From a virus: 64,000 bases of DNA. Numbering within the stretch: the stretch's first letter is position 1; each line of letters starts with the position of its first letter. The stretch is from positions 32,001-96,000 of IMG/VR virus record IMGVR_UViG_3300025150_000003, one strand, 5' to 3'. Positions 33,516 through 64,000 of this stretch are shown piece by piece. The position numbers and the translations under genes were made by a program. The notes under the pieces were generated by a model. That model did not search any database. It saw only the letters and a program-made list of their open reading frames with translations, and was not told the origin of the DNA.

Positions 33516-35114
33516 TCAGGGCTTGATCCCCACCAAGAAGGGTTCCCAACCCGGCTTCAGGGCCGTGGCCCACCCATCGAACTTGGCTGCCTCTGAGGTT
33601 GCTGCCGCAGTTAGGGAGTAGCCATCCTTGAGTCCGTTCTTCGCTTTCCCGGTTGCCCCCCCGTAATCCAAAGCGATTCTATCAACAACCTGTGGGTCGA
33701 TGTTGCCCACTTTGCCCACGACCTCTCGCTCGGCACCGAAGTGCTGATCGATAGCCTTGCTCGTGTTCAAATATTTCGGAAAGCCACTGTTTCCAGTGAT
33801 GAATGTCAGCCCCTTACGTCGAGCTACAAAAGCTCCGGTGGGCACCCTGACACACCACACCGTCCCTGTGTGGTGCACCTTTTCAACCTGAACAGCTACC
33901 CTTGCCAGATCGGCAAGGGCTTCCCATGCGCCTCGAACAGCTTGTGTGCCTGATTCGAGGCGAACAACGCCAAGTTCTCCAGCCTGTTGTCCACGGGGTT
34001 GTGGTTCAAGTGATGCACCGTCTCCTGTCGAGAGAGACACCGACCCAACACCTGAGCTACGATCAGTCGGTGTTCCATGATGTACCCATCCTTGCGGGCC
34101 ATCGGGCGGAACTCGGGGGGGCAGCGCAAGTACCGGATCTGTCCGTTCTTGGTGTAGTTGCCCTTTTTCCTGAAGTAGGTCACCCCACCCTTCCAAGCCG
34201 GGTTGCTCGGCCCCGTCATTTTCTTGATCGCAGATGCTCTCCCTTCGGGAGACACCGCCGCAGCCCCCTTGTGCCCGTGCTTCGCCCAGTCCTGACCCCG
34301 ATGCACTCCGTTGCACTTCCGAGAGCAAACTGGCTGGCGTGCCCCCTTCCGAAGCCACGCATCGGGATACCACTTCAGCGTGCCACACACTGTGCAGGCA
34401 ATGAACTGCCCCTTCCGTTCCGCCAGGGGCTTCTTGATCTGCACTCGGATCCGGTTCGCACAGGAACGTCCGCACGTCTGTTGTGACGCTTTGTGGGGGA
34501 TGAACTCCCCACTGCACGCTGGGCACAACCTCGGTTGCTTCCAGCCCCTCCGCTCGGATGAACTCCCAGTGACCCTCTCGTTGGACAAGGCAGCGGTGTC
34601 CGACGGACACGATGTGGTCAGTGCCGTCTCCATAGAGACGGTAGGCTTCTCGGTCGTAGGGGTACTCAAAGGTTTCCTCCACAGACTGCCATGTGAGTTG
34701 GCCGGTCTCGGGATTGAAGCCCAACACCTGCTTTCCGACCTTGGCTCTATGGTAGTGTGCCCACCCCTCTGGGGTCAAGATTTCAGTGTCCTCCGTGAGA
34801 CATCCGTACCCCCAAGCCTCAAGGGACCCTTCCACGGGCAGGACGAACCCTGCCTCCTCCATGGCAGCCGCAAGTCGATGGAATGTGCGGGTGGCCGAGA
34901 ACACCTTGATGATGCCGCCAGAGGGCAGAACGTCAAAGCAGGCTTTCAACCATTCTAGGTGCCAAGCCGCGTTTTCCTGACCAGTGCCTTCTGCATCCCA
35001 ATCCCTTGACATGAAGCCCACCAAGTATGGGGGGTCCGTGACCACAGCCCCGACACCCTTCAAAGTCTTTAGGACCTGGAAGCTGTCACCCAGTCTCAGC
35101 GTGATGGTCGTCAT
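33516..35114 (-). CDS. N6A/N4C DNA methyltransferase, catalytic (DPPY) half, intein-interrupted
   Basis: VTDPPY, WGYG|intein|SGFPK, GWATALKPGWEP. Confidence 0.85.
   Translation of the reverse strand: MTTITLRLGDSFQVLKTLKGVGAVVTDPPYLVGFMSRDWDAEGTGQENAAWHLEWLKACFDVLPSGGIIKVFSATRTFHRLAAAMEEAGFVLPVEGSLEAWGYGCLTEDTEILTPEGWAHYHRAKVGKQVLGFNPETGQLTWQSVEETFEYPYDREAYRLYGDGTDHIVSVGHRCLVQREGHWEFIRAEGLEATEVVPSVQWGVHPPQSVTTDVRTFLCEPDPSADQEAPGGTEGAVHCLHSVWHAEVVSRCVASEGGTPASLLSEVQRSASGSGLGEARAQGGCGGVSRRESICDQENDGAEQPGLEGWGDLLQEKGQLHQERTDPVLALPPRVPPDGPQGWVHHGTPTDRSSGVGSVSLSTGDGASLEPQPRGQQAGELGVVRLESGTQAVRGAWEALADLARVAVQVEKVHHTGTVWCVRVPTGAFVARRKGLTFITGNSGFPKYLNTSKAIDQHFGAEREVVGKVGNIDPQVVDRIALDYGGATGKAKNGLKDGYSLTAAATSEAAKFDGWATALKPGWEPFLVGIKP
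33789..34802 (-). mobile_element. intein (338 aa) in DNA methyltransferase
   Basis: N-term CLTEDTEILTPEGW, block B ..GHR, C-term VWCVRVPTGAFVARRKGLTFITGN followed by Ser+1. Confidence 0.9.
33896..34669 (-). CDS. HNH endonuclease nested in +1 frame inside the intein
   Basis: Zn fingers, NPAWKGG, GYIMEHRLIV...LGR.L...ETVHH.NH...DNRLENL; GGAGG 6 nt upstream of TTG. Confidence 0.85.
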   Translation of the reverse strand: MSTPTTEKPTVSMETALTTSCPSDTAALSNERVTGSSSERRGWKQPRLCPACSGEFIPHKASQQTCGRSCANRIRVQIKKPLAERKGQFIACTVCGTLKWYPDAWLRKGARQPVCSRKCNGVHRGQDWAKHGHKGAAAVSPEGRASAIKKMTGPSNPAWKGGVTYFRKKGNYTKNGQIRYLRCPPEFRPMARKDGYIMEHRLIVAQVLGRCLSRQETVHHLNHNPVDNRLENLALFASNQAHKLFEAHGKPLPIWQG

Positions 35115-36709
35115 CAGTCTTCACCAAACCAGTCGAGGAGGGACACAGTCTTCGGGGGCTCTTTCTTGACCTGGTGATCAGACACGATCTTCGTGTCGTG
35201 TCCCCGGTACTTCGAGGTGCTCCAGTAACGGATACGGGCATCCGCAATGGCGAGATACTCTGGCTCCCGCTCGATGCCCTCGAAATCATGACCTGTGATC
35301 GAACAAGCGATGCCCGTGGTCCCGGAGCCCAGGAAAGGATCCACCACGGCCCCCAGGTCCTTGGGGACATTGGCCAGCAACCTCTTCATGATTTCAATGG
35401 ACTTCACGGTCGGGTGGAAATTACGGACCTTCTTCGCAGTCCGCCCAGCCCCGGCTCGTGGGTTCTGCACCCCTGCCGAACCCTCTTCCCGTTCCACGGC
35501 CTCGTGCCCAGCCTTGGCCGGCAGCTTCGAGCAACCAGCCTCTCGCTCCTTCCTTCCTGCCTTGGCAACGTAGTGGAAGGAGCCAGGACCTTGGACAAGC
35601 AGGATGGCGTCACGGATCTCGAACCCTGCGTCCTCCAACCGAATGGCTCCGGTGTGACCTGTGGGCTGGGTATCGGGAGCGATGAGGAAGACGTGACCAC
35701 CCGGCGGGAGGACTCGCCAGCACTCGGTGATTTGGGACTCCGTGATGGTGTGACTGCCGCTGGTCACGACCAGGCCACAGACCGAGCCGGTCTCCCAGGT
35801 GGAGATGTCCGTCGTGGCGGAGATGACCACGGCTTGCTTGTCAGGAGTTGAGCCCATCGTGCGGAGATACTCGGTGAGGGTGTCTCCCGATGCCTGCTTG
35901 AAGAACCGGGAGGCACCTCCTGTGTCCCGGTGCCCCTCGGTATTTCCTGCTTTCCACCCAAACAAGCCCCCTTGATGGTCACGGCTTGTCCGAAAACTAT
36001 GAGGACGTTCCCCGCTCTGCTCATCCAGGTCTGCTACAGGGCAGTCAGGCTCACAATCCCACTCGGGGTCGGACTCCACCTGCTTGAAGAACCGGGAGGC
36101 ACCGCCGGTGTCCCCGTAGGAGACCATTGGTGTCCCCTCTGGACGATTCTCCTGACCAAAGGCTGCACTCCCATTGCCATCCTGGTCCCGCGAGGACGCC
36201 CTCTTGACCGCTCCCGTGCCCGAAGTGAGGCTCCCGCTCTGTTCATCCAGGTCAGCCACGGGGCAGCCAGACTCACAATCCCAAGCCGCAACCTGTTCCT
36301 TCCCCGTGGAATCCCCGTGTTGATTGCCAGGATGAGAGACACCGCGTAGCATCCCCGTTACGGATTCACCCTCATAGGCATCAGGTACAGTCTTCGATGA
36401 GGGACTGCCTTTGACGATCTTGGTGCCCGCCTGAACACAACCCGGTTTGTGTTGTAGGATGACGTTTGCAGGCCATCTCCCTGAGACCTCCGGGGGAGTG
36501 TCCCCTGCGCCACCCCGCTTGAAACGCCAGTCCTCAGGATTGGGTCGGGGAGTCGGGTCCGAAGCGTATGCCCCACCACCAAGATTGTCTTTGGTGGAGA
36601 GTCGGGTATCCCCGATGTTCAGGGACCCTGTGCCGTACTTGAGGGCGTTCTGCGCAACGGTGCCCTCAAGGGGCTTCCGGGCCATATGGATAACGATCAT
36701 TCCGGGCAT
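35114..36709 (-). CDS. N6A/N4C DNA methyltransferase, SAM-binding half
   Basis: MARKPLEGTVA.N...GTG.LNI, GRWPAN, SRFF, NFHPTVK, VDPFLGSGTTG, FEGIE. Confidence 0.85.
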   Translation of the reverse strand: MPGMIVIHMARKPLEGTVAQNALKYGTGSLNIGDTRLSTKDNLGGGAYASDPTPRPNPEDWRFKRGGAGDTPPEVSGRWPANVILQHKPGCVQAGTKIVKGSPSSKTVPDAYEGESVTGMLRGVSHPGNQHGDSTGKEQVAAWDCESGCPVADLDEQSGSLTSGTGAVKRASSRDQDGNGSAAFGQENRPEGTPMVSYGDTGGASRFFKQVESDPEWDCEPDCPVADLDEQSGERPHSFRTSRDHQGGLFGWKAGNTEGHRDTGGASRFFKQASGDTLTEYLRTMGSTPDKQAVVISATTDISTWETGSVCGLVVTSGSHTITESQITECWRVLPPGGHVFLIAPDTQPTGHTGAIRLEDAGFEIRDAILLVQGPGSFHYVAKAGRKEREAGCSKLPAKAGHEAVEREEGSAGVQNPRAGAGRTAKKVRNFHPTVKSIEIMKRLLANVPKDLGAVVDPFLGSGTTGIACSITGHDFEGIEREPEYLAIADARIRYWSTSKYRGHDTKIVSDHQVKKEPPKTVSLLDWFGED

Positions 36710-37671
36710 TGCAGCAGATCCAGGATAGAGTTGTTGTCCGGTTGGAGACAGTGGGGAGAAAACCAGAGAGTCTCAAGGGTGAGGTTCTTGGTTCCCTGCC
36801 CCCCTGCATTGGAGTAGCCCGTGTTGGACTGCCGACTCGTCCCTGCCCAGTTCCACTGAGCCCAGCCCTCGGGTAGGACCCGTCCATCGTCATACCCTGC
36901 TACTGCGATGCGTAGGGCGGGGTCATCCCCGTGCTGTACAGCCCAGTCCCATACGGCTGCCGCAATCCCAGCCTCATCGCTCAGACTTGCCCCCGTGGGA
37001 TAGAGCTGGTCTGTCCCACGTCCATAGGGGGGATCAAGGAACAGAGCGTTGATCTTGGCCGTCTTCAGCCCGGCCCCAAGCAACCGAGTCCAGTCCCCGC
37101 ACACAACCCGAACTTCCCGTAGCCGCTCGGAGAGCATCTGGAAATGATCCAGCGTGATCTTGCCCACCCGCTTGTAGGTCAGGTGTGGAACCGTTCGACG
37201 GACACCTGGTCGGACATCCCCTTTTGGGCGAGCCTGGAAGACCCCGTCAATGGATACCCAGGGTCCCTTGCCGATGCACCAACCTCGGCCAATCCACGAA
37301 AGGGAACCCCACACCCACCAACCTGCGATCTTGGCGTCGTACCAGTGAGGGTCCCCCATCAACCTGTTCAAGATGTTCTCACTCTGGCCCACAAGCCAGA
37401 GATGTCGGGCGTGAAGGTCAGCCTCGTTCACAGGCCACTGAGCCCAACGAAGTACCTCCTCCGGCTCCGCAGCCACGGCTCGAAAGAAATTCGAGATGAA
37501 CCCATCGGCATCGTTGATGGTCTCCATCCCTTTGGGACCGTCGGGACGCATCAGCAACACTGCAGCCGAACCGGCGAAAGGCTCCACGTAGTTGGACACG
37601 GAACCAAACCGTCGCCACACCTCAGGGGCCACAGCATCCTTGTTGCCGAACCGAGAGAACGGGGCTTTCAT
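36697..37671 (-). CDS. Dam-like (D12 class) DNA adenine methyltransferase
   Basis: KAPF..FG.K, YVEPFAGSAAV, IND, FLDPPY; ATG overlaps helicase stop. Confidence 0.9.
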   Translation of the reverse strand: MKAPFSRFGNKDAVAPEVWRRFGSVSNYVEPFAGSAAVLLMRPDGPKGMETINDADGFISNFFRAVAAEPEEVLRWAQWPVNEADLHARHLWLVGQSENILNRLMGDPHWYDAKIAGWWVWGSLSWIGRGWCIGKGPWVSIDGVFQARPKGDVRPGVRRTVPHLTYKRVGKITLDHFQMLSERLREVRVVCGDWTRLLGAGLKTAKINALFLDPPYGRGTDQLYPTGASLSDEAGIAAAVWDWAVQHGDDPALRIAVAGYDDGRVLPEGWAQWNWAGTSRQSNTGYSNAGGQGTKNLTLETLWFSPHCLQPDNNSILDLLQCPE

Positions 37672-40562
37672 CAGTCCGTCTCCAGTTCCTCTTTGGCGGC
37701 CTTGTCCACGGCCGCACCAATCTTGGCGTTCTCCTCGGGAGTCAGCGCCACATCGAAACAGCTCAGAAGCCGACGACAAGGCCACTCCACCCGGGCGATG
37801 AAGGGCAGGAACGCTGCCTGGTCACGAGACTTGAGACAGTTGAACTGCACCCTCGACTGAGCTTTCAACTCATCATCGATCCAGGTTGAGGTCACCACGT
37901 CGGCCGAGTTGTGTGACAGCACAGGCCCCGTTTGGTACTCGTGATCCCCGTCCACTTCCAGATCCATCACGGGCTCATCTCGACCCGTATCTACTACAGA
38001 AACGACCCGCATCACCTGGAAGGTCAACAATCGTCGTAAGAACTGGACTTCAGCACCTCCGATGCCCTTCTCCGATGCGTGTTGCACCAGAAGTTCCACG
38101 GCACTCCGAGGCACCAGCCCCGTCTTACGGACCTTTGCAGGCAGGTTATAAAAGCTCCGAGGGAACGCCCCCTGGACAGACCCCGCAGGATGCACTTGGG
38201 TAAAGGCAGACAAGAACGTGTGAGGTACTGGATACACCTGTTTGCGAGACTCCCGCCCGGATACTTGCTGTGCTTGCTTATCCTCTTGGGAGAACCCAAT
38301 GTCTTGATGAAAACGCTGGGCACTTTCACGAGTCCGCACCCGGAGTAACACTTTCGGGTAGGTTTTCCCGGTCCGGCGCAAGAAAGAGCCCCACTTAGAC
38401 AAGTCCGAGTCAATACCCAGGGCTGTCAACAGCAACTGTACTTGGCGCAGGAAGTCTTCACAGGCCCCCTTCATGTTAATGCCCACGACCCCCTGATTGT
38501 TCACCCATCCGTCTGTATCAAACAATCCCTGCAGGTAAGCACACACAATTTCACGGGGGGCCTGCAAGATGCAGGTGGGGACTTCGACAGCCCGTTTACC
38601 CGCCACCGTCTCAAACCACCGCTTCAGAGGCTGGCTCCACTTCACCAGTTCGAAGGATCCTGACCGAGAAGGGTTCTCTTGAAGGGGCAGGGTATGACCG
38701 AAGGTATGCTCAAAACAGGTATGGAGTCGATCCCGAACAGCCGTCTCTTTCCGGTTCCCCGTCCAACCCAGGCCCCGAGGGTGTGTCTTGCCGTCACCAT
38801 CCCAAGCTCCCAGCAAGTAGGCTAGATCACGAGTAACTTTGGCGGGAGTTTTCAAGGGGATTCCTTGCTGCCCACTCGGTTTTTCACCGGACCCAATGAC
38901 AAGGTCAGGGAGTGCCGGGAACCTGCTGGGCCATGCCTCCTCTTCGCCGAAGGTGCTTGCCACATAGTCCTTACCTGGACTCAAGTTGCTGATGGTCTGC
39001 CAACCCAATTGGCCATCTTGCACCACCCGCACTCGATGGGATGCCGTGCAACCTAGCTTGGACCCCCTGTCCGTTGTCACGTCCCAGATGCGGCGGACAC
39101 CATTGTCGAAAACCTGCTTGATTTGCTTCCAACCGGAACCCGACCACACGGTTTCTCTATATCGGGAAACCTCGTCAATGCGCACAATTCCCCGGCCAGA
39201 ACGGATGAAAGTGCTTGAAACTGCTACACATCGCTCGGCTTCGTTGGCGTAACTCAGGTGAGTCAAATTGTAGCCAGCAACACCGGTCTTCTCCTTCGTC
39301 TTGAGAGCACTCTTGTACCCCTCACGGGAAATTTGGAACAGACCGACGACCGCCATCCCCTGCCCACGGTTGAATCCCAGAGCGAGCTTCTTGAGGTCAC
39401 GGATGACCTCGTTCAGGTTCTCTGTGGTGCTGCTGCGATGCCGACGGGGCGACATGAGCCCGCAGTGGTCCACGAACACCATTGAGAAGGGGTCTTTGCT
39501 GTAGATGACCTCGGCCATGGACCGGAGGTCGTGCATCGTGAAATCGTCCTTGTCGGGGTCGGCAACCTCGATGTGGATCTTCGCGTAGTCCTGACCGAGG
39601 TAGGGGTGGTTCACCACATCCTCCCCATTGAAATCGGGGATCACATAGTCGAAGTAGAAGGCCTTGGCGTTGACATTCCACTCGTGCAGCTTGCCATCCC
39701 GGATGTCCTGGTAGGGCAGTCCTACGTCTTGCTCGGGGTCCGTCTGGATGCCCAGACGCATTCGGATCTCACGGAACTTCGGGTGCATCGAGTGGATGGC
39801 GTAGAGGATGCGCCGGCACTGACCGTAGGGCATCTCCAGGCTGAAGATCAGCACGTTGTGCTTGTAGATCACGGCCTGGTTGTAGGCCCAGTTGAGCATG
39901 AACGTGCTCTTCATCCCGCCGGTGAACGCAGCATGAATCCAAAGCTCGTGTCGCTTGGCCCCGCCGAGGGCATCATCGCACTGCTGGAGGAAACAGAACT
40001 GCCCAATACCGGCGAGAGGGTCTGCCTCGACCCTCTCGTACTCTTCCTTGACCGCAACACCATCCTTGGTGACTTCACCGGAGAGCCTCCCGCCGATGGT
40101 GGGAGCTACAATGTCGTGAGCCTTCTCCATCACATACCGGGCGGAGTGGATTGGCCCCAGGAGGATCTTCTTCTCCTTGCCATCCGCCACCTCCATCCCA
40201 GTGGAGGTGATGATGGACGCCTCCTTGAGCGTCTCAGCCCATACACGCTGCCGACGGTCGTTGGCCTTGTCTTCCAGGACTCGCTGGAAGTCCCCCTTGG
40301 TCCTTGCCTTCAGCCCCTCCAGCACCCGGAGCTGATCTAGGACCGAGTCCTCCTTGGAGTGCTCGAAGTGTGACCTCAGGGTCGCGAGGTTCGGGATGTG
40401 ACTATGAGCCCGGACGAACTCTTGGATGTAGGCCCAGATGGCGTTGTATTCAGGGACCTCGAAACCAAGGGCGGATCCGTTGAGCATCTGATAGTTGCGG
40501 AGCAACAGCTCGGGATTGTCCCCAGCATCCGCAATGAACACTGAGCGAAGCAGAGACTTCAT
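37671..40562 (-). CDS. dnaB: DnaB-like replicative helicase with intein
   Basis: AAFTGGMKST, FSLEM, FVDH, QISR, EAER|SADVV, LKSRD. Confidence 0.85.
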   Translation of the reverse strand: MKSLLRSVFIADAGDNPELLLRNYQMLNGSALGFEVPEYNAIWAYIQEFVRAHSHIPNLATLRSHFEHSKEDSVLDQLRVLEGLKARTKGDFQRVLEDKANDRRQRVWAETLKEASIITSTGMEVADGKEKKILLGPIHSARYVMEKAHDIVAPTIGGRLSGEVTKDGVAVKEEYERVEADPLAGIGQFCFLQQCDDALGGAKRHELWIHAAFTGGMKSTFMLNWAYNQAVIYKHNVLIFSLEMPYGQCRRILYAIHSMHPKFREIRMRLGIQTDPEQDVGLPYQDIRDGKLHEWNVNAKAFYFDYVIPDFNGEDVVNHPYLGQDYAKIHIEVADPDKDDFTMHDLRSMAEVIYSKDPFSMVFVDHCGLMSPRRHRSSTTENLNEVIRDLKKLALGFNRGQGMAVVGLFQISREGYKSALKTKEKTGVAGYNLTHLSYANEAERCVAVSSTFIRSGRGIVRIDEVSRYRETVWSGSGWKQIKQVFDNGVRRIWDVTTDRGSKLGCTASHRVRVVQDGQLGWQTISNLSPGKDYVASTFGEEEAWPSRFPALPDLVIGSGEKPSGQQGIPLKTPAKVTRDLAYLLGAWDGDGKTHPRGLGWTGNRKETAVRDRLHTCFEHTFGHTLPLQENPSRSGSFELVKWSQPLKRWFETVAGKRAVEVPTCILQAPREIVCAYLQGLFDTDGWVNNQGVVGINMKGACEDFLRQVQLLLTALGIDSDLSKWGSFLRRTGKTYPKVLLRVRTRESAQRFHQDIGFSQEDKQAQQVSGRESRKQVYPVPHTFLSAFTQVHPAGSVQGAFPRSFYNLPAKVRKTGLVPRSAVELLVQHASEKGIGGAEVQFLRRLLTFQVMRVVSVVDTGRDEPVMDLEVDGDHEYQTGPVLSHNSADVVTSTWIDDELKAQSRVQFNCLKSRDQAAFLPFIARVEWPCRRLLSCFDVALTPEENAKIGAAVDKAAKEELETD
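37908..39230 (-). mobile_element. intein (441 aa) with in-frame LAGLIDADG endonuclease
   Basis: CVAVSS..., TASHR, LLGAWDGDG and LQGLFDTDG, ...DLEVDGDHEY...SHN|S. Confidence 0.9.
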
Positions 40563-50501: not shown

Positions 50502-50870
50502 TCAAAGCCCCCCATACTGAGAGTCCGTCGTGCACTTTTCACAATGGCGAAGTTCCCCTCTGAGAGGAACTAGGTGACGACGACCTAGATGATGGTATTG
50601 AGGGACCCGCTCAGCATCATGACCTTCAGAGAAGTGAGCCTTCCTGGCCAGGACGGCGATGTCATGATCGTCTAGGTCACCCGCCACCCAGGCCCGATAC
50701 TCTGCCACCAGGTCCTCCGCCGTCTGCTGCGAGCGGATGTTCAGCGCTGGGGCGTGGGACTTGGCACCGAGCGGCCTGGCAAGGGGATGGCTCCCCTTGG
50801 GCCACAACGAAACGGTGACCATCCCGAGGGCCACCTGAGCCACTTTCTGAAAAAAGCCACGACGGTTCAT
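50502..50870 (-). CDS. hypothetical protein with twin-arginine-like N-terminus
   Basis: MNRRGFFQKVAQVALG. Confidence 0.5.
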   Translation of the reverse strand: MNRRGFFQKVAQVALGMVTVSLWPKGSHPLARPLGAKSHAPALNIRSQQTAEDLVAEYRAWVAGDLDDHDIAVLARKAHFSEGHDAERVPQYHHLGRRHLVPLRGELRHCEKCTTDSQYGGL

Positions 50871-53800
50871 CAGGTTCCTCGCAGAGTCTCAGGGTACACG
50901 GCCAACGTCACCGCTGCCGGGTCGGGGACTGCCCGACTGTACCCACGGAACATCGGGCGACCCATGCAACGGTAGCGATCCGCCGCTGCATAGCCCTCTC
51001 CGTAACCGGAGGGGCTGATGATCCCGTCGAGAGTCATCCCTTCCTGCACCGTCATGCCATTGCCGAGATGGGCGTAGGTCAGGATGACCATCTGGATCTC
51101 ATCCCCGTCGCTGGTCTTCGCCAAGGAACCACCCGCAAAGGCCTCCTCGTAGTAGTTGCGCACCAGCATGGCACGGCAGGCAAGGACACCGCCCTTGACG
51201 ACTGGAGCGGCCGACTTCGGGAAGCTCTCGCTGACCCAGTCAAGAGGCCCACCCGGATTGTCACCCGAGAGAACGTAGGCGGCTCCACCACCACGGTAGA
51301 TGCGGAACTTCTTGGTGGCTCCAACAGGAGCGGTGTCCGTCCAGGCCGCCCACGAGTATGGAGCCACCAGCACATCGGCCATGGCGACCAGTTCACCGGG
51401 AGCCCCCATGAACCTGCTGTACTCCTCACCACCACCCGTGAGGGGCATCAGGGTCTGGATGGGTCGGAGAGGAGCCGGCCACGAGGTCATCGCGGATGAC
51501 GTGTCCCCGAGAGGGTTCTCACTCAGGAAATCATTGTCTTGCACCAGGACGCCCAAGGGCAACCGCTCGGTCATCCCTGCGAGAGCCACCTGGCTCGTGC
51601 CGTTACCAGCATTGACTGGCAAGTCCACCCCACCAAAGAGATTGGTTGCCGTGGTCTGATGGCCTACTGGCGGCTCGTTGCTGAACGGGATACCCAGTCG
51701 GAAGGTGCTTGTGAGGAGCAACCCGGGGTCTGTTCCTATCGTTGCACCAAATTTCTCACGACCCACCTCGATCCGAACCCCGTTGCCCTCAGCACCTGTG
51801 GGCACGGCTTCAATGGTCACCTTGGGAGTGCCATCATTGTAAGCCGTCACCGTGCGTTGGAGCTTGGTGTTCGCGTTGATGCACGTCACCAACCCATCGG
51901 CCGTTTTCTTGTTCGACGGTGAATTCTTAACCAATCGAATGTCGAACACAGCCGCCGACAGGTCCACATCATAGGCTGCGAGGTTGGTTTCGTGCAGCAC
52001 CGCGACGTCGAGATTGATCGAGGCCGGCGTGAGTGTGAGAGCACCCGTCGTCTGGTTACGGAACGTGATGATGATGGTGTCCGGGGCAACGACACGTCCA
52101 TCAACCACGAAACCCGTCAGCATCGTAGCAATGTCGGGGGGATTGACCACCACCACATCCCCAACCTGGGCTCCGGTAAAAGCCTTGGCGACTTCTGTCA
52201 CGGAACCCGCTCCCACCGACCCTATCTCAGCTTGGGTGACGTTGATGGTCTTGATCGGCTGAAGATCAGAGAGTTGGTCGAAAGGAATTGCCGGATAGAC
52301 ATTCCGAGCCCTGACCGTGACGAATCCAGGGGTCGTCACGGTTGCATCAAACAGTGCTGCAACCGGTGTGGTTAGTGGGTTCAGAATGACCCCGTCACCA
52401 ATGGCGGCGAAGGTCATCGGCACGTTCACGGATGCTATGCCCCCAGCGGACACGATCCCCAGGTTCACCACTTCTTGTGCCAGCACAGTCTCGGTGATGT
52501 CTGAGAACTCATCCTCCTGGAAGATGTCGTCGGGATCCACCCCGGCAAGCACCAGTGTGGCACCGAAGACTGCGGTAGACCCGTAAAGCGTCACCACGGA
52601 ACCATCCAGCAAGATGAACCGGACATAGAAGGCGTCGTCGTAGGTGTGGGCCTGTACCATCGACTGAGCACTCAGGATCTCCACCGTAGCCCGAGCACGG
52701 CTTGAGTTCTCTTTCTGACCCTCAGTGAACGACCGCACCTGGATGCGCCAGTCGTTCGAGGTGGATTCCAGAGGCATCCGCGTCGCCGAGAGAAGGTCAG
52801 CCTGAATGTTCCCCACGTCAAGAGACGTACCGGGGAACAGTGCCCCGCTGATCTTGCCGGTCCCGAGAGTGGTGTAGAAGTCCATCGAGGCCAGGACCTC
52901 GAAAGCTCTCTCGTTGGCCATCTGAGGCATGAAATCACCGGCCGAATCGAACTGCTGCACCGCCGTTCGAAGCAGGTTCGCCTGGCTCGGGGAGAGCCGA
53001 CCATACCGGTTCTCGTAGTCCGCCGTCTGACGGGTGTCCCCATCCCGGCTCATGAAAGGGTCACCTTGGTAGACCGTGCGGTTGTAGGCCGAGTAGAGGC
53101 GATCATTCACCCCTGCAGGGCTGGGGATGCACATGGGCACGTTCTCGAACTCGGCATCGTCCCCATCAACGTTCTGGTTGAAGCTACCATCACGGTCACG
53201 CATCAGTACGATGTTACAGGTGTCAATGAATCCCTTGGCGAAGAAGAACACCGTGCACTCAACCACATAGTCAAAGTCCTCGAAAACCGACACATTCTCC
53301 ACGTAGGTGGGGACACGGGTCAGATCGAGAACGTTGCTCGGGATGATGTAGGTGTGGTCTCCCGTCTCCTCGGTCAGGTCCTTCGCCCCATCCCGTAGGA
53401 TGAACAAGGACTGCTGATCTGCGTCCTCCCGTAGGAGATTGATCGCAGGGTTCAACTCCATCTCGTAACGATTCGACTTGAAAGCCGTACCGCCCTTGGC
53501 CACGTAGTCGTCGAACTCATAGACCCCGTAGAGGCGAGCGATGCCCATGTAGGGTGGCATCTGGATGCCTTTCAACCCACGACCCAGGTCCGACGAGTTG
53601 ACCGCCGCCAGGGCTGCAATCACGTCACGGGTGTTCTGACCTGCCAACGGGTTGAGGTCTGTGGTCTTGCGAGCCCCGTAGGCCCCTACAGCCTTCGGGC
53701 CATAGGTGGCATTCGTGCTCGCGTAAGCGATCTCCGAAGCCCTGGTCACGAGGAACAGGGAGTTGACCTCGGAGCCACCCGCGTTGCGCTCCCCACCGAT

Positions 53801-56800
53801 GAAATTGAACACCGGGTTGGTCACGTCCGTGACATCGGTGAACAGGTGGTTGATGCCAGGCATGAATCCGGCAGATGTGGGCACCGTCCCAGCATTGAGC
53901 TGCCGGTAAGGAATGTCCTGGCGACCGAACCGAGGCATGAACTCAGGTGGGATCTCCACACCCATCTTCTTACCGGTGTTGGCCGTACCAGTCAGGATCG
54001 TGAGAGTGTCCTTGTTGACCGTGCTCGGGTAATCATAGCTGCCAAGCAGACAATCCGCCACTGGCCAGGTCAGAGCCTGAAGGGTCATGTCCCGGTTACG
54101 GAACGGCCGGAAGAGGACGGTCTTGGACCCTCGGTCCACGAAACACTCGTGCTCCCGGTCCTGCTCGGTGAACCCCACCACGGCCCCACCATAGGCGGGA
54201 GCATCCGGGGCGTGCCAACCGAGACCCGAGAGCCGGTTCCATGTCTGGATGTGAACCGTGGGCCAGTAGGTTTCATCCGTAGCAGTGCCGACTGGGAATG
54301 TCGTGTCGATGCCCGATGGAGCCCGACGCAGATAGGTGCCCAGAGTCTCTTCGGATCCACCCCGCATTGCGAAACGCACGAACTCATCAGGTACACGAGT
54401 CGTTGCCGACCGACCAGGATGGTAGAGCAGGGTGGTTGAAAGGACCATTTTACTGGGAGAGTAGTAGGGACCAATCCCACTTTCCCGCACAAGAAACAAC
54501 CCGGGTTCCAGGTTGTTCAATGCCCAGGGAGAGCCATCATAACCCTCACCACCAATGTCCGTCAGCACCACCATGAAGTCTGCCACCCGACCGGGGTAGG
54601 ACGAGACGTCATCAGCGTTGTGGTACTGGGACCGGAAGTCCACCGTGATCTCGTTGCCTGAGCCCGTGGCTGACCAGGTTGTAAAGTCCGCCGACAATGG
54701 CTCCAACACCAGCATCCCTGCCGCTGAACCTGAATGCTCGGTGTACCCGGCAGTGCCCGCCCCGATGACCCGGAAGGCCCCATTGTTGTTGCGCCCCGTG
54801 GGGTCCCCAAATGTCACGATGTAGACTTCGGAGGAGGCACCTGAGATGTCCTGGCCGTTGTTCGTCAGCATCCCGTACAGGGTACGCTCACCCCTGAGCA
54901 GGGGCTCAGATACCGCCGTGGGGTCGTTCTGGAAGACCCCACTCAGGTCCTTGTGATAGAACACCCCATCAGTGTCGAAGTCGATACCCTTACCAGTCAG
55001 GTCAAGGTAATGCCGTGTGATCCCATAGCCACCAACATCAGCCACCGACGTAAGGTTCGAGACATTGACAGCCGGGATGCGGAGGGTGGACTTCAGCAAT
55101 CCGCCAAGCACGATGAATGGGCTCTCAAAACGGGACTCCCGCCAGGGATACATTGGACCGGGGTAGCCAGCACGGTCCACATCGGGCAATGCTGCGGGAG
55201 GAGCCGTGGTCAGGTACTCATCAAGAAACCTGAGCGTGACAGGGTGCTGGTTACCGTTGTTCGAGTTGGCGACGGGGTAGCCGGACTTCCAGAACTCCTG
55301 AGGAGTCACGAACCGGACGTCCTCAACACCACTGTCTCGGAACGTCCCCCGAGCACCACCTACGCCAGTGGAGCCACCGATGAAAAGGTGAACCGAGGAG
55401 CCGTTGTACCACCCAGCGGATAGACCACCGGTGTTCAAGAACCCAATGGGCTTGAGGTCTGCCCCCACATCCCACTGCACGTTGGCGTCGAACCCGGTAT
55501 TGGTGAACCCCACCAGCCCGGTGGCGTCCCGAGTGGCGGTCTCGTCGAGCAACAGAGTCACATCCGGCTGGATGGTGGCTGCGTCCGACCAGATGGTGCG
55601 GATCCCGTCAGGGCCATCTACAGGATCGGTCTGGTTGGGATGATCCACACCCCCGGCGTACATCTCACAGACCTCATGAACGACAGGGCCTTCGGTGACA
55701 CCAGGATTTGACTCCTTCCAGGCCGTCCGCAGGGTGCCCTTGGCCAGTGCTGCTACGTTGTGGGTCAGCAGCCGAGTGTAGTCCCAGTCGCCCGGGTTCA
55801 CAGCCCGCCGCAGGTCCAACACATCCTGTGAGGCGATCTCATCGGCGTACAGTCCGTCAGGACGAGTGTTGAACTGAGTGATGAGAGCACCCGTCAGGTG
55901 CCCCACCGCTGCCGTGCCCCACCGTCCCCGCCCACCGGCTGGGATGGTGATGGTCCCACCAAGCAGGTCCACCGCCGAGATGCCAACGATCTCATCGTCG
56001 ATACGGAGAAACACACCCGAGAGGACGTGGGCAGTGTCTTCCAACCCACAACCGTTGAGGTTCGTGACCGCGATCGTGAAGTTTGCCAGCTTGCCATCAT
56101 CCGGCCCCAGCATGGCTCCCAGCTCTGCCTGGAGCAGAGGCACCACTCCGGCCAGGGTGGACACACCTGGTGTGCGGAGGGTGGCCCCGTTCTGCTCTGC
56201 GTTGCCGGCTGCCTTGGCAGAGATGTAAGTCTGGCTGTTGCGGCGGAACACCGCACAGATCGGGATCGCGTAGGTGTAGCCGTCGATGGTTCCCAGTGCG
56301 TTATTCGGGTCTCCATCCCCAGCACGCCACAGGGACGTGTCCCCGAGGGACTCCCGCATATTGACCCACGTCATCCCTGCCACAGGGGCAGTGGTGTTGG
56401 CTCCCTGGCCAAGAATGTTGGGGTCCCCGAGCCCGTCCGGGTGGACGGCCAGGTTCACGCCAGCGCCACCCCCCAGGCCGGAGCCATAGACGCGGAGGCG
56501 GTACTGAACTTGAACCCGCTTGGTCGTCTCGGATCCCACGGTGGGATCTTCAAGATCGTCGGTGAGGTTCGTGCCTCCGTGCTTGACGTTGCCGTACTTC
56601 CAGATGGTCGCGACAGTGGGCTTGTTCAGGGTCGAGGGGTTCGGCTGCACCGTGGAGGACCAGGCCTCCAGGAACACGAAGTCGGTACGAGCATCAGATC
56701 CCGGCGGGGGGTAGAGCTTGATGACGTTGTGGACAGCAGCGGCCTCGGTGATGTCCGTCCCGGCGACCGGAATGATCCAGCCGTTGACGTTGGCCCACAC

Positions 56801-57097
56801 GATCGGCTGAGTCTCGTTCGCATCAAGAGACCCCGTGGCACCTCGCGGCACGCCAAGGTGGAAGTGGTTGGCCCACAGCTTGTTGAACTTGAAATCGAGC
56901 TGTGCCCTGGTGGGGTCCATCAAGAACCCAGACGGCATCAGACCTGCGACATACTGCCGCAGGCGCTCCTGCTCGGAGGCGGACATCAGGTTCAGCTCGG
57001 CATCCAGCGGAGGCTTGCCCTTCTGCCAAATGACGGCGGCCCAGGCCCGATCGATCGGGCTCATGGTGCGTGAAATGCCGGTTCCGTAGTCAAGCAT
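50870..57097 (-). CDS. very large virion structural (baseplate/tail) protein, 2075 aa
   Basis: Q.GKP.LDAELN N-terminal motif, G/T/V-rich beta composition, structural gene context. Confidence 0.7.
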   Translation of the reverse strand: MLDYGTGISRTMSPIDRAWAAVIWQKGKPPLDAELNLMSASEQERLRQYVAGLMPSGFLMDPTRAQLDFKFNKLWANHFHLGVPRGATGSLDANETQPIVWANVNGWIIPVAGTDITEAAAVHNVIKLYPPPGSDARTDFVFLEAWSSTVQPNPSTLNKPTVATIWKYGNVKHGGTNLTDDLEDPTVGSETTKRVQVQYRLRVYGSGLGGGAGVNLAVHPDGLGDPNILGQGANTTAPVAGMTWVNMRESLGDTSLWRAGDGDPNNALGTIDGYTYAIPICAVFRRNSQTYISAKAAGNAEQNGATLRTPGVSTLAGVVPLLQAELGAMLGPDDGKLANFTIAVTNLNGCGLEDTAHVLSGVFLRIDDEIVGISAVDLLGGTITIPAGGRGRWGTAAVGHLTGALITQFNTRPDGLYADEIASQDVLDLRRAVNPGDWDYTRLLTHNVAALAKGTLRTAWKESNPGVTEGPVVHEVCEMYAGGVDHPNQTDPVDGPDGIRTIWSDAATIQPDVTLLLDETATRDATGLVGFTNTGFDANVQWDVGADLKPIGFLNTGGLSAGWYNGSSVHLFIGGSTGVGGARGTFRDSGVEDVRFVTPQEFWKSGYPVANSNNGNQHPVTLRFLDEYLTTAPPAALPDVDRAGYPGPMYPWRESRFESPFIVLGGLLKSTLRIPAVNVSNLTSVADVGGYGITRHYLDLTGKGIDFDTDGVFYHKDLSGVFQNDPTAVSEPLLRGERTLYGMLTNNGQDISGASSEVYIVTFGDPTGRNNNGAFRVIGAGTAGYTEHSGSAAGMLVLEPLSADFTTWSATGSGNEITVDFRSQYHNADDVSSYPGRVADFMVVLTDIGGEGYDGSPWALNNLEPGLFLVRESGIGPYYSPSKMVLSTTLLYHPGRSATTRVPDEFVRFAMRGGSEETLGTYLRRAPSGIDTTFPVGTATDETYWPTVHIQTWNRLSGLGWHAPDAPAYGGAVVGFTEQDREHECFVDRGSKTVLFRPFRNRDMTLQALTWPVADCLLGSYDYPSTVNKDTLTILTGTANTGKKMGVEIPPEFMPRFGRQDIPYRQLNAGTVPTSAGFMPGINHLFTDVTDVTNPVFNFIGGERNAGGSEVNSLFLVTRASEIAYASTNATYGPKAVGAYGARKTTDLNPLAGQNTRDVIAALAAVNSSDLGRGLKGIQMPPYMGIARLYGVYEFDDYVAKGGTAFKSNRYEMELNPAINLLREDADQQSLFILRDGAKDLTEETGDHTYIIPSNVLDLTRVPTYVENVSVFEDFDYVVECTVFFFAKGFIDTCNIVLMRDRDGSFNQNVDGDDAEFENVPMCIPSPAGVNDRLYSAYNRTVYQGDPFMSRDGDTRQTADYENRYGRLSPSQANLLRTAVQQFDSAGDFMPQMANERAFEVLASMDFYTTLGTGKISGALFPGTSLDVGNIQADLLSATRMPLESTSNDWRIQVRSFTEGQKENSSRARATVEILSAQSMVQAHTYDDAFYVRFILLDGSVVTLYGSTAVFGATLVLAGVDPDDIFQEDEFSDITETVLAQEVVNLGIVSAGGIASVNVPMTFAAIGDGVILNPLTTPVAALFDATVTTPGFVTVRARNVYPAIPFDQLSDLQPIKTINVTQAEIGSVGAGSVTEVAKAFTGAQVGDVVVVNPPDIATMLTGFVVDGRVVAPDTIIITFRNQTTGALTLTPASINLDVAVLHETNLAAYDVDLSAAVFDIRLVKNSPSNKKTADGLVTCINANTKLQRTVTAYNDGTPKVTIEAVPTGAEGNGVRIEVGREKFGATIGTDPGLLLTSTFRLGIPFSNEPPVGHQTTATNLFGGVDLPVNAGNGTSQVALAGMTERLPLGVLVQDNDFLSENPLGDTSSAMTSWPAPLRPIQTLMPLTGGGEEYSRFMGAPGELVAMADVLVAPYSWAAWTDTAPVGATKKFRIYRGGGAAYVLSGDNPGGPLDWVSESFPKSAAPVVKGGVLACRAMLVRNYYEEAFAGGSLAKTSDGDEIQMVILTYAHLGNGMTVQEGMTLDGIISPSGYGEGYAAADRYRCMGRPMFRGYSRAVPDPAAVTLAVYPETLRGT

Positions 57098-57935: not shown

Positions 57936-60900
57936 CTAGTCCTCCACGTTGTTGGAGTTGGCGGTGGCTGTACCGGGGGCAACGTTGAACACAGTGGCCA
58001 AGTTGTCTACCTTGTTGCCCACGGCCACCTGACCCACCGTGGGAGCAGCAGCAGGAACCGCACTGTTGATGGAGGCCGTCCGGTTACCCACGATAACACC
58101 TGTATTGGTGGCTGCGGCTCCCGCGTTTACCAGAAGGTCACCGGTGATCAGGTTACCCACGACCACGTAATTGTCTGATCCTGTGAGGTCCACAGAGGCC
58201 GCAGCCCCCACGGAGGTCCCCACCCAGTTCCCCTGGAACACCACCTGGTCGGAGTTGTTCAAGGTAACGGCACCCGCACACCTGTTGCCTTGGACGGTCG
58301 TGCGAAGAACAGCCTGGATCGACAAAGTGTCCAAGCAAAAGTTGCCCGTAAAGGTGCCGTTGTCCATCCCCCCAAAGGAGGTAGCTGCATCGAAGTGGTT
58401 GTTGCTGATGACGGGTTGGGAACAAACCGAAGGCAGAGTCCACGTCACGGCCCCCGTGAAGTGATTGCTCGTGATCTCGTAGACGAAATCCCCCGCCCCG
58501 CCCTCGAATGCCACGGCCCCAACGACATCATTCCCACGGATCACGATAGAAGTGCAGCCCGAGGTCGTGAATGTCCCCTGGACTTGATTATCGAGGAACT
58601 TGCATTTGCTGGAACTGGACAGCACAGCATCTCCAGCAACATGGTTCCCCGAGAACAGGCAGTAGTCTCCCTGACCGAACAGGGAGAAGCTCATGACGTT
58701 GTTCTCACAAACGCTCGACCCCCCCAAGAAGTTGAGGGAGTAGATGTTGGGAGAACCTGACTCCTTCTCCTTGCCACCAATCACGTTGCCCCGAATGGTG
58801 CTGTACTGACCCTCGAACCAGATCCCACCACCATCGGCCCCGTCGTTTTGAACCACGTTGTCACAGACGACGAAGTTCTGAGCGCCGGCACCCCCACCAT
58901 CGGTGAAATGCAAGGTCGTGACCGACACCTGATTCTTGCAGAAGATGGTTCCCACACCGTCGATTTCCAGCATCAACCCAGCAGCGGACTGTGTGAGATG
59001 GTTCCCAAGGAAGCTGTTGTAGTTGCCCGCGAGAGTAATGTCTGCCTGAATTCCGATCTGGCAGCCCTCGAAGCGGTTGCGCTCAGCATCCACCCCCGAG
59101 TCCTGGAAACCATTAAGGAAATAGCAACCAATGAACGAGCAATCGCTCCCGAGCGTCACCCGTCCGTTGAAAGCAACTGTGACCGCGCCGAAGGTGACGT
59201 TGCTGAAGAAGTTGAAGGACCCCACAAGGATGGGGTCGTTGCCGAGGAACTGGTCTCCTTCATAGGACCCGTACTGTCCTGTAGCGACCAGGCTCTCGAA
59301 CCAGTTCGAGTTGGTCTGAACCTGATCTCCATTCACGATCAGGTAGCCACCAACTGTTGCACGATTGAAGGACACCACGGAGTAGTCCCCTACTCCAATG
59401 TTGTAGTCCACCTCGTTTCCGAGGATCTCGGCTCCGATACCCTGACTGTCAATCGCCAGATCATTGAGCACACCACCTGAGAGTGTGACCTTGTTGTGGA
59501 GGACCTTCGCGTAGGTGCCCGTGGTTGTGACACCCATCTTCGGAGCTGCCAGGGTGTAGACCGAAACCAACCTGCTGTTCTGCAAACTGCTATAGGGACA
59601 TCCCAGGTAGACGCCTTGCTCATCCGTGTCTGAGATGGTGCAGTTGTCGATCAGAATTGGACCCAACCCATCTGCAAAGACCCCGGTATCCCCACCTGTC
59701 AGGATGGTGTCCCGCACTGTCCAACCGATACACTGGCCAGCATGGATGATCCCGTAGGGCGTCATCAGGCCCAGAGCGGGACCCGGGGCATCCGTACTCT
59801 TGCGGGCGGTGAAGTTACAGTGCTCGATGAGCACGCGATCTGATGTGTCTACCGCACTGTCCACATAGATCGCGGTGTCGGTCAGATCCAGAGCGGTGCA
59901 ATTCCGAAACAGGAGGTTGCTCACCCCGAACGTGGGGCCGAAGCCACCAGGGTGGAACAAGAAACTGTGGGCCGGTCCAGCCAGGGTGAGGTTCTCGAAG
60001 ACGATGTTCGATGCGAGCCCACTGTCCACCACGAACAGGTTCCGGTTGGTGGTGGAACCGAGGTCAGGAGCAGCCTGGTCATCAAACCGGAAAGCCACAT
60101 CCCGGATAATCCAGTCCGAGCACCCATTCAAGTTGAACAGAGAGGGTGCGTCACCCCTCCAGGTGACCTCGTAGGAGGTGCCTACAGATCCATCCCCACG
60201 CCGACCAGCCCCCTCGATGATGAGGCCGCTGATGGCGAAGTTCATCGGGAGCTTGGTGATGTCCTCTTCCGTCGGGCCGATGATCTTGATGCGGCGGAAC
60301 TGGCCGTTCGAGACGTTCGTCGTCCGAGCGACGAACTCCACGGCATCCGCCAGCTCGTTGAAGTGAGCGTCCCCCGGCTGGTCATGGCCTGTGTATGCCC
60401 CCACTGTGATGTCGAGTCGCTTGTCTACGTCCACCAAAGGCTGGCGGAGATCGTAGTAGGCTAGGACAATCCCGAAACCATCCGGGGTGTACTCCCCGAC
60501 CAAGACATCGTTGGAAAGAGGTAGAGGAAGGGCGTTGGTGTAAGCGTACACCGGGCAGTAGGGATCCGTCCCGTCGATATAGACGTAGCCCTCAACTCCC
60601 AGGGTGGCATCCACCTGGAAGCTCTGGGCCGGCAGCACGGTGCGGACACCGGCGATGAGGACGGTCAGCTCAGCAAAGTCGAGGATGTCGTCTATGCCGA
60701 GGGGGGCCGTGGTCATCTCCCCACCCCGGATGACCCAAGAGGAGAACAGGTCCGCAAAGAGCTTCTCGTGGTCTGCTGTACGAGGGTCTGTGTGGTGGGC
60801 AAGAGAGTCCAGCAGGGACGCCCCCGGGACGCCCGGTAGGGCACCCTTGTCGATCTCCCCGACATTCGGCCCTGGGCCAACCAGCCCCGGCCCAATCAAC

Positions 60901-60980
60901 CCAGGACGTACCGTCGTGGCATCGGGGGCCATCTTGCCAGGACCAGTGTTCAGGGTCCCAGGGTTCAGGATCCGAGGCAT
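57936..60980 (-). CDS. tail spike/fibre-like protein with parallel beta-helix repeats
   Basis: Many GN/Asn-ladder repeats over the C-terminal ~700 aa. Confidence 0.7.
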   Translation of the reverse strand: MPRILNPGTLNTGPGKMAPDATTVRPGLIGPGLVGPGPNVGEIDKGALPGVPGASLLDSLAHHTDPRTADHEKLFADLFSSWVIRGGEMTTAPLGIDDILDFAELTVLIAGVRTVLPAQSFQVDATLGVEGYVYIDGTDPYCPVYAYTNALPLPLSNDVLVGEYTPDGFGIVLAYYDLRQPLVDVDKRLDITVGAYTGHDQPGDAHFNELADAVEFVARTTNVSNGQFRRIKIIGPTEEDITKLPMNFAISGLIIEGAGRRGDGSVGTSYEVTWRGDAPSLFNLNGCSDWIIRDVAFRFDDQAAPDLGSTTNRNLFVVDSGLASNIVFENLTLAGPAHSFLFHPGGFGPTFGVSNLLFRNCTALDLTDTAIYVDSAVDTSDRVLIEHCNFTARKSTDAPGPALGLMTPYGIIHAGQCIGWTVRDTILTGGDTGVFADGLGPILIDNCTISDTDEQGVYLGCPYSSLQNSRLVSVYTLAAPKMGVTTTGTYAKVLHNKVTLSGGVLNDLAIDSQGIGAEILGNEVDYNIGVGDYSVVSFNRATVGGYLIVNGDQVQTNSNWFESLVATGQYGSYEGDQFLGNDPILVGSFNFFSNVTFGAVTVAFNGRVTLGSDCSFIGCYFLNGFQDSGVDAERNRFEGCQIGIQADITLAGNYNSFLGNHLTQSAAGLMLEIDGVGTIFCKNQVSVTTLHFTDGGGAGAQNFVVCDNVVQNDGADGGGIWFEGQYSTIRGNVIGGKEKESGSPNIYSLNFLGGSSVCENNVMSFSLFGQGDYCLFSGNHVAGDAVLSSSSKCKFLDNQVQGTFTTSGCTSIVIRGNDVVGAVAFEGGAGDFVYEITSNHFTGAVTWTLPSVCSQPVISNNHFDAATSFGGMDNGTFTGNFCLDTLSIQAVLRTTVQGNRCAGAVTLNNSDQVVFQGNWVGTSVGAAASVDLTGSDNYVVVGNLITGDLLVNAGAAATNTGVIVGNRTASINSAVPAAAPTVGQVAVGNKVDNLATVFNVAPGTATANSNNVED

Positions 60981-63900: not shown

Positions 63901-64000
63901 TCGTGGCCGTTGCGGTCTCTGTACCACCGATCACGAACTCATCAACTCCAGGAGGACCCACTGCGATGGCCGTCAACGGCAGAGAGTTGATGGAGATGAT
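60965..64000 (-). CDS. large virion structural protein (5' end outside window), paralog of 50870..57097
   Basis: Frame open to window edge; shared motifs ET..R.Q.QYR.RV, AGDG...LG.IDG..YAIPI, RPDG...D.I....LDLRR. Confidence 0.7.
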   Translation of the reverse strand: MISINSLPLTAIAVGPPGVDEFVIGGTETATATNIATAINDVGNSFATIVTAVDSGSDVNLTAVEPGAGSALLFTGNFITLSVTVGTVGCMTVSGALFTGGEDRPNKPTTSQGQIFRHGNVLSPSPVWLDDEIFDPVANTETSQRIQLQYRVRVTDDSEAINYKVNPDGFSSRIAGGGPLDAAVFAQGNRAVPVWTGNGVDTLSFPFVPADGASTWLDTSAVDFGWKDDGLYVAGDGSEAAAQALGAIDGFVYAIPIAFVHRHNDASDVLAAILGFDPVANTNGAPVYDHAGFVGVLGAVPAGASDRPDGHFCDVITQENLLDLRRHVVPSGIDLATELQYQVQSLLDGSLRTWSVDTASKQVLGGASGDVSTRYLICNEIGRTIAEGGGAPGSGESTDRGVLVRSYDHIARRFGAQPVVERVVIGYWPGDRDGVAVLPGTNNPGKYVTKDVASATTWYEGDVLHLDLEFLNATTLGGLFDSRNGAGDGGGGSGVGMPDQNFLALAPTGTVITDVLNAWHDDGHYDQVTNQNVQFGIIKGLGTTHLELTLDANDTLTTEGQPIAGPNIEHKMAGSGVLAAPADYGSPRRIFLEVEITYPVGEGTTDTVDFEVDPDVTVYSDDVLTVTGPGPLVENDILQRPADYELLLPARYRLAYREIQSEYIANDTIAHGAPLAGDPVGTTTVEQIVSLDRDTLRFPRRVWSNGAGLGLSVEDTPIVSPMTVDVANSELGSSSRIIELDTALTGLLSGVGHTLCTITYFAQDPIPNYGVNGAGYQISYYFRSNSPQTAGTKEGDITSTGTGTLPTTLQVEPLLTSPSVWTGQLGMGGCDKSFPYNAPLDQIPLNDGTDTTEEWFFAATAEVAVADFDASTGLLNLHAFVQQDVQDILSLGGAGATEKPRQDAEFRAYYPFADDTAYRPTVMAQPLSGATRHKSFVPFLARAVADVPGVDGGLLFRKSELLLVVLSRFAELDAENNVRFVDPIADNRTLAAVYRTRNLLLTVGGRTCLGS

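Follow-up and report, generated by a model that had tools for sequence, protein, structure and literature searches.

A probable mobile intein in a phage DNA methyltransferase with its HNH endonuclease gene nested in the +1 frame

The insert analyzed here is very probably a mobile intein of a phage N6/N4 methyltransferase, with its homing endonuclease encoded as a separate gene nested in the +1 frame. According to the proposed mechanism, ribosomes reading the methylase frame cross a stop-free, disordered spacer of 200 aa and join both Hint halves in one chain, a step demonstrated by the sequence and by the selection acting on it. The intein would then splice out and restore the WxYGSGFPK motif, as its catalytic residues and fold suggest. 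Conserved motifs predict that a promoter within synonymous codons of the N-terminal Hint half would give a shorter transcript, and that the HNH protein would be initiated on its own, here at a Shine-Dalgarno-led TTG at intein codon 45. Family membership and a patchy distribution suggest that this zinc-finger HNH protein would nick or cut intein-free methylase alleles near the insertion site, and that repair would copy the element into the cut allele. A first-pass annotation had proposed a dual-coded mobile element of this kind, with splicing and homing translated separately; conservation, selection, and host trees give that proposal good support.

The window, the whole stretch of 64,000 nucleotides that was analyzed, belongs to a virus record of 169 kb that is about 32% complete (CheckV) and occurs mainly in aquifer and groundwater metagenomes. 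None of the listed holders of the record was an RNA dataset, and no terminase (PF03237) match was found in the record at this level of completeness. Neighboring genes in the window encode DnaB, an SNF2 helicase, PolA, and a D12 methylase, and by our own reading probably a PhoH-like protein. The DnaB-like helicase gene (37671-40562) carries a canonical in-frame LAGLIDADG intein, as first annotated, and Pfam agrees. Two very large ORFs (50870-57097 and 60965-63976; 2075 and 1003 aa) had no Pfam match, and the sole Pfam match of the ORF at 57936-60980 (1014 aa) was a weak beta-helix. The antisense ORFs at 33902-34486 and 34311-34958 likewise had no Pfam match.

The intein and the methyltransferase it interrupts

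The host ORF encodes 532 aa including the intein and 194 aa after predicted splicing. Intein-free alleles (P0121, P0123, and P0146) share 77-85% identity with the host gene over its conserved parts, and in homologous alleles without the insert YGSGFPK is contiguous and the motif uninterrupted. The initial claim of a 338-aa intein (34802-33789) within a methyltransferase motif is corroborated by the N6_N4_Mtase match of the host, the empty alleles, the modeled fold, and the intein family profile (77 homologs), which matches the AceL NrdHF intein with E 2e-9. The methyltransferase itself consists of two adjoining genes in permuted order (33516-36709), with the SAM-binding half upstream and the DPPY half downstream. 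The start of the upstream gene resumes the motif where the host gene stops, as in unsplit homologs, and the upstream gene also holds a degenerate copy of the motif preceding the intein site. Among the C-exteins of related intein loci with enough flank, 38 are without FxGxG and 66 have it. At L023:1193-2600 a free-standing HNH gene lies between two separate methylase halves, a possible route to the split form. At L045:1169-3004 faint Hint and LAGLIDADG matches also lie in the methylase gene that precedes the intein-bearing half, and both halves may hold inteins there.

Table 1. Features of the element and its host genes (positions in the window)
Feature	Positions	Strand	Evidence or remarks
Host gene, N-terminal (DPPY) half of split N6/N4 DNA methyltransferase	33516..35114	(-)	Pfam PF01555 (N6_N4_Mtase) E 7e-8
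Upstream gene, C-terminal (SAM-binding FxGxG) methyltransferase half, permuted order	35114..36709	(-)	PF01555 profile positions 159-219, E 7.5e-14
Intein, 338 aa, Cys at 34802 to Asn at 33789	33789..34802	(-)	insertion WGYG/SGFPK (slash, insertion point); invariant columns in 77 homologs; PDB profile match; fold and Foldseek
N-terminal Hint half, aa 1-97	34512..34802	(-)	pLDDT 86-98 per 10-residue block
Host-frame spacer, aa 98-297, disordered read-through of HNH gene, stop-free	33912..34511	(-)	pLDDT mostly 40-55; host-frame dN/dS 1.8; stop avoidance
C-terminal Hint half, aa 298-338	33789..33911	(-)	pLDDT 93-98 from aa 301; dN/dS 0.08 for aa 310-338
Nested +1 gene, 257 aa, TTG start, TAG stop	33896..34669	(-)	HNH_3 E 5e-8 at aa 200-240; dN/dS 0.19; core His/Asn conserved
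Doubly constrained stretch: Hint block B region (frame 0) and HNH leader (frame +1)	34509..34669	(-)	+1 stops 3 vs 235 expected; entropy 1.02 vs about 1.9 bits
Shine-Dalgarno-like GGAGG, 6 nt before TTG	34676..34680	(-)	-9.3 kcal/mol; SD plus TTG in 8/8 loci of the window's clade
Putative internal sigma70-type promoter TTGACC-18-TACCAT, within N-terminal Hint coding sequence	34749..34778	(-)	scan; codon bias at codons 17-18

The key residues of the intein are Cys1, His69, Cys317, Thr336, Gly337, Asn338, and Ser+1. C1, H69, and N338 are invariant across the homologs, the +1 residue is Ser or Thr, and the penultimate residue is Gly, not His. Class 3 inteins are defined by the lack of an N-terminal Cys and by a WCT triplet (PMC7891396); this class was rejected, as Cys1 never varies and most homologs have Cys instead of Trp at position 12 of block B. 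Cys317 in block F and Thr336 in block G, with block positions assigned by motif, are two of the three class 3 marks, and the chemistry would be at most a class 1/3 hybrid. AlphaFold with a 77-row alignment placed aa 1-97 and 298-338 mostly above pLDDT 90 with a low-confidence coil between them, and the top Foldseek matches of the model were inteins and Hint domains, confirming the earlier reading of two intact Hint halves; from the single sequence the mean pLDDT of the intein was 34. Searches of the insert against Pfam, NCBIfam, and PHROG gave no intein match. The middle part had been called G/Q/E-rich and unlike any domain: it is indeed a disordered 200-aa spacer, but Gly predominates in its composition (G 30, S 19, V 18, E 17, and Q 14 of 199). 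Intact catalytic residues and the predicted fold indicate that the insert probably splices as an intein.

The nested protein has a 48-aa leader, two Cys4 zinc-finger-like units (from 34525 and 34396), and an HNH core whose residues H, H, N, N, and H are kept in 135-136 of 136 loci. Its initial identification as a zinc-finger and HNH protein at 33896-34669 was borne out by HNH_3 (PF13392, 32.9 bits against a cut-off of 24.8, E 5e-8) and by a PHROG HNH match (E 2e-17), and its Atlas clusters are HNH_3. A profile search of both frames had been suggested; it recovered the HNH in the +1 frame, whereas Pfam misses the intein in the host frame. No solved structure matches the HNH profile, and Pfam found no EndoVII in the element. 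The gene was left out by the gene callers in all four annotated contigs checked. From intein codon 10 onward the +1 frame has no stop for 292 codons, and the first ~53 codons of the ORF overlap the folded N-terminal Hint half, not the spacer. The overlap, originally described as one with a junk peptide, thus also takes in about 50 splicing-domain codons. The +1 stop does lie close to the start of the C-terminal Hint half, as described; it falls about 5 codons inside its strand rather than at its edge.

Conservation of both frames and signals for expression

Searches with the intein and with the HNH retrieved at least 238 intein records, at least 144 of them remaining after removal of near-identical ones. 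Among these 144 non-redundant inteins from the matches listed, 142 contain the HNH, invariably at +1; of these 142, 141 keep the host frame free of stops and one has a stop. Of the two listed inteins without HNH, one is a LAGLIDADG intein (L041). None of the 142 listed HNH-bearing inteins has the endonuclease in frame, and a canonical bifunctional intein was rejected. Frame-blind searches with the HNH only also listed no in-frame HNH; searches ranked on the host-frame alignment favor +1 loci, and counts of mini- and LAGLIDADG inteins are not representative. The offset is the same across 142 diverged listed loci with GC contents of 30 to 72%. The family is large (at least 140 non-redundant loci), old, and largely missed by annotation.

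In the nuclease region, dN/dS was 0.19 in the +1 frame versus 1.8 in the host frame (26 disjoint pairs). The homolog comparison that the first-pass annotation had called for thus came out in its favor, with both frames open in nearly all listed HNH inteins and purifying selection on +1. A host-frame stop was avoided at 5018/5018 sites at which a synonymous T in the HNH frame would create one, versus 30% T elsewhere. In a control of three free-standing copies, T occurred at 60/103 risk sites. In the window alone it occurred at 0/30, versus a background of 21% (P about 1e-3); across loci, P values are inflated because the loci are related. The host-frame dN/dS and the stop avoidance together demonstrate that the sequence of the spacer is unconstrained and its openness constrained.

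Stops in the +1 frame numbered 295 observed versus 255 expected over intein codons 1-45 and 231 versus 186 over codons 306-337, and only 3 versus 235 over codons 46-98. In this doubly constrained stretch, third-base entropy at 4-fold degenerate host codons was 1.02 versus about 1.9 bits elsewhere. Entropy was also low at codons unable to form a stop; therefore, avoidance of stops is not the whole constraint on the +1 leader or its DNA. On this sequence evidence, both frames constrain about 50 codons of the splicing domain, a natural case of double-frame constraint over that length.

Loss of the nuclease was also seen. Two loci (L159 and L106) have a nonsense change in the HNH, and in the Hint tree HNH-less mini-inteins nest at several places among HNH-bearing ones, the usual decay path. 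In-frame internal HNH deletions with both frames open, in L298 (P0010), P0012, and P0015, represent decay intermediates. L182 and L232 are longer inteins (427 and 399 aa) with extra tandem zinc-finger-like repeats in the HNH and both frames open. L302 (LR756508, a 484-kb uncultured phage) is, among the matches listed, the sole record of the annotated phage collection with the full intein plus the +1 HNH, and the record is unannotated. L275 (intein at 1987-2904) gave a hint in the trees that the AU test did not support.

The proposed start of the nested gene, GGAGG 6 nt before a TTG, held up on comparison: no other candidate start has an anti-SD match as strong as that of GGAGG (-9.3 kcal/mol), and all 8 loci of the window's clade have this sequence with a TTG at intein codon 45. 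An ATG is found at codons 44-50 in 26/26 loci with their last +1 stop at codon 34-50, versus 53/106 of the other loci. Of the loci without a near start, 27/31 possess an upstream ATG in frame. Most of the SD is predicted to pair, equally in long and short transcripts; a T4-style hairpin switch accordingly found no support, and no conserved RNA structure was found near the start or the promoter. The TTG start may be weak.

Upstream of the start, Tyr17 is encoded by TAC in 113/119 loci versus 51% in flanking code, and His18 by CAT in 73/75 versus 38%. TAnnnT is found at codons 17-18 or 29-30 in 129/136 loci; the second of these positions has it in 108/136, 85 of them with a TG extension, and 46 of the 108 have an ATG or GTG 7 nt downstream, which is leaderless spacing. 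In intein-free and free-standing loci, TAnnnT lies 5-8 nt before the start in 17/28 versus 2.4 expected. Relatedness among the loci makes the P values of these motif statistics too strong, but in the same genes the majority of control codons approach saturation. Conservation of these -10-like motifs, which lie in synonymous codons, suggests an internal promoter, and an operator role is possible. Among HNH-less mini-inteins, TACCAT is lost in 4/7 and the start in 3/7, two of these being one lineage, and this loss is only suggestive.

Distribution of the nuclease and alternative explanations

The same HNH family also occurs without an intein. Among the matches listed, 25 non-redundant loci carry it at +1 inside a homologous methylase with no Hint domain and an open host frame. 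In these (L005, L006, and L010, for example) it mostly lies just downstream of SGFPKS, with DPPY and FxGxG intact. Because of these 25 alleles, the host methylase family must tolerate an unspliced read-through loop at a variable site, and the suggestion that excision is what lets the host tolerate the nested gene does not apply in general. Five further copies of the family lie outside the methylase frame, one of them between two methylase halves. In L024:2959-3474 and L265 the HNH is nested upstream of W.YGSGFPK, with an apparent partial duplication of the flanking motif. L285 (the 567-kb Curtobacterium pusillum plasmid pCPAA3) has a free-standing HNH right after the C-terminal methylase half.

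Unconstrained HNH trees split the intein-free copies into two or three groups, and AU tests do not reject one group (p 0.68, 0.72), the outgroups being too distant to settle the number or direction of moves. The HNH most likely came from a lineage already resident in the methylase locus without an intein. A tentative extension, to which we give a little less than even credence, is that the three states of one HNH lineage (free-standing, at +1 without splicing, and at +1 in an intein) record the birth of a mobile intein, in which promoter, start, and a leader of ~50 residues would have been gained by overprinting the splicing domain, locking the HNH out of frame. If this is true, the permanent out-of-frame lock argues against the later slide into frame that has been proposed. 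The three states make the model of a free-standing nuclease invading an intein testable.

In the host tree, which like the other host trees is a quick tree of about 170 columns, HNH-intein alleles are scattered among empty alleles. Monophyly of the intein-bearing hosts was rejected (p-AU 4e-36), as was that of six tested hosts from the window's HNH clade (p-AU 9e-4). The window's host groups with six empty alleles at 77-85% identity, and its closest HNH among the matches listed (82% identity, L045/P0005) sits in a distant host. The host trees fit horizontal spread or homing; repeated precise loss, or recombination among methylase alleles, could contribute to the scattered distribution.

These trees bear on whether the HNH is the homing enzyme of the intein at all. 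The nuclease could be real and serve another phage function, such as competition with co-infecting phages or recombination, or cut elsewhere, with the intein hitch-hiking. The occurrence of the same family without an intein and free-standing speaks for this reading. We consider it unlikely: mini-inteins arising repeatedly within the clade, together with the nonsense alleles, indicate that the HNH is dispensable, the nuclease stays tied to one methylase locus, and the intein-bearing hosts are not monophyletic. Very unlikely, too, is a programmed +1 ribosomal frameshift near intein codon 45-47 that would yield the HNH fused to the N-terminus of the methylase. With a shift site, +1 stops would likewise become scarce abruptly at codon 46, and L076, L152, L160, and L135 have no obvious start before the open stretch. 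Against it, there is no conserved slippery sequence or RNA structure, upstream ATGs replace a missing near start, and promoter-like motifs are conserved upstream; initiation is favored over frameshifting because ATG is present in all of the late-stop loci.

We give next to no credence to an error of assembly, or to an in-frame HNH intein that broke recently and has compensating indels, even though in-frame HNH inteins are known in other genes (bioRxiv 10.1101/2025.01.02.630785). The homolog survey refutes this explanation through the shared offset, and the overlap of the +1 ORF with the Hint domain means that no simple indel pair could fuse them. The first-pass annotation had proposed an indel check, and contigs of four runs (X6, X7, X20, and X21) have no indels across the element; X6 covers the whole stretch and may be the source sample, and X7, X20, and X21 cover it piecewise. 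An intein-free allele in X20/X21 was considered and rejected, since the partial cover comes from fragmentation and contains no joint. HNH genes that are out of frame with the host are common in introns, which would suit removal of the insert as RNA by a self-splicing intron. This too is extremely improbable: no Rfam match was obtained at E up to 1, group I and II included, selection on the Hint halves acts strongly at the protein level, and stops are actively kept out of the host frame. An intein with a separately expressed nuclease thus remains our preferred reading.

Comparison with known systems

The first-pass annotation left open whether the arrangement was new; it has already been published (bioRxiv 10.1101/2025.01.02.630785; PMC4422536). 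Gosselin 2025 described an EndoVII-like intein endonuclease in frame 3, with non-canonical inteins interrupting genes for polymerase, minor capsid, terminase, or thymidylate synthase (bioRxiv 10.1101/2025.01.02.630785). Out-of-frame intein endonucleases have been called rare, and their expression an open question. As in those cases, the window's intein is contiguous, with an open unstructured host frame, a same-strand endonuclease in another frame, and signs of continued spread. It therefore belongs to the same general kind, with an other-frame endonuclease and an open unstructured host frame, but not to the EndoVII/frame 3 type, being a zinc-finger HNH_3 in frame 2 of an N6/N4 methylase. Their second ORF typically lies outside the splicing domain, whereas here ~50 codons overlap it. 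The words 'promoter' and 'start codon' are absent from their main text; the present family gives concrete coordinates for the expression of an out-of-frame intein endonuclease. A putative intein-encoded HNH gene out of frame was reported for a brucellaphage terminase in 2015 (PMC4422536). It shares the zinc-binding HNH out of frame inside an intein-bearing phage gene; it differs, by its description, in its terminase host and was remarked on in passing, without a selection or expression test.

The ShiLan domain/Pacc40 type is a hidden HNH in mycobacteriophage DNA methylases (PMC11855218, PMC9957025). Like the window's gene, it is an out-of-frame zinc-finger HNH in a phage methylase with an open host frame; it is not spliced, and leaderless initiation has been proposed. 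The 25 intein-free alleles share this layout, whereas the window's copy lies inside a true intein, in frame 2 within Hint, and ShiLan has no Hint domain and lies in frame 3. ShiLan-type phages were absent from the tblastn matches of the window's HNH at E 1e-8, and the ShiLan HNH probably represents another lineage. A canonical LAGLIDADG intein of mycobacteriophage methylases (FreddyB gp67, for example), apparently the family studied in PMC9957025, occupies the identical site between WxYG and SGFPK and has related Hint halves. Phage contigs whose host gene closely resembles that of the window (L041, P0081) have it as well. Unlike the window's element, it has its endonuclease in frame, forms a separate well-supported Hint-tree branch, and is without TACCAT.

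RNA introns with endonucleases express them from an embedded promoter of their own, as predicted for the element, and have a proposed origin from a free-standing nuclease pre-adapted to the same site; they need no open host frame, whereas here the frame must stay open through the nuclease gene. Within an incomplete literature coverage, no published report was found of the HNH_3 methylase-intein family, the overlap with the splicing domain, or an internal promoter. Taken together, the layout itself is known, and what this analysis adds is the splicing-domain overlap, the promoter-like motifs, the intein-free and free-standing HNH copies, the host trees compatible with horizontal spread, and the site shared with a LAGLIDADG intein.
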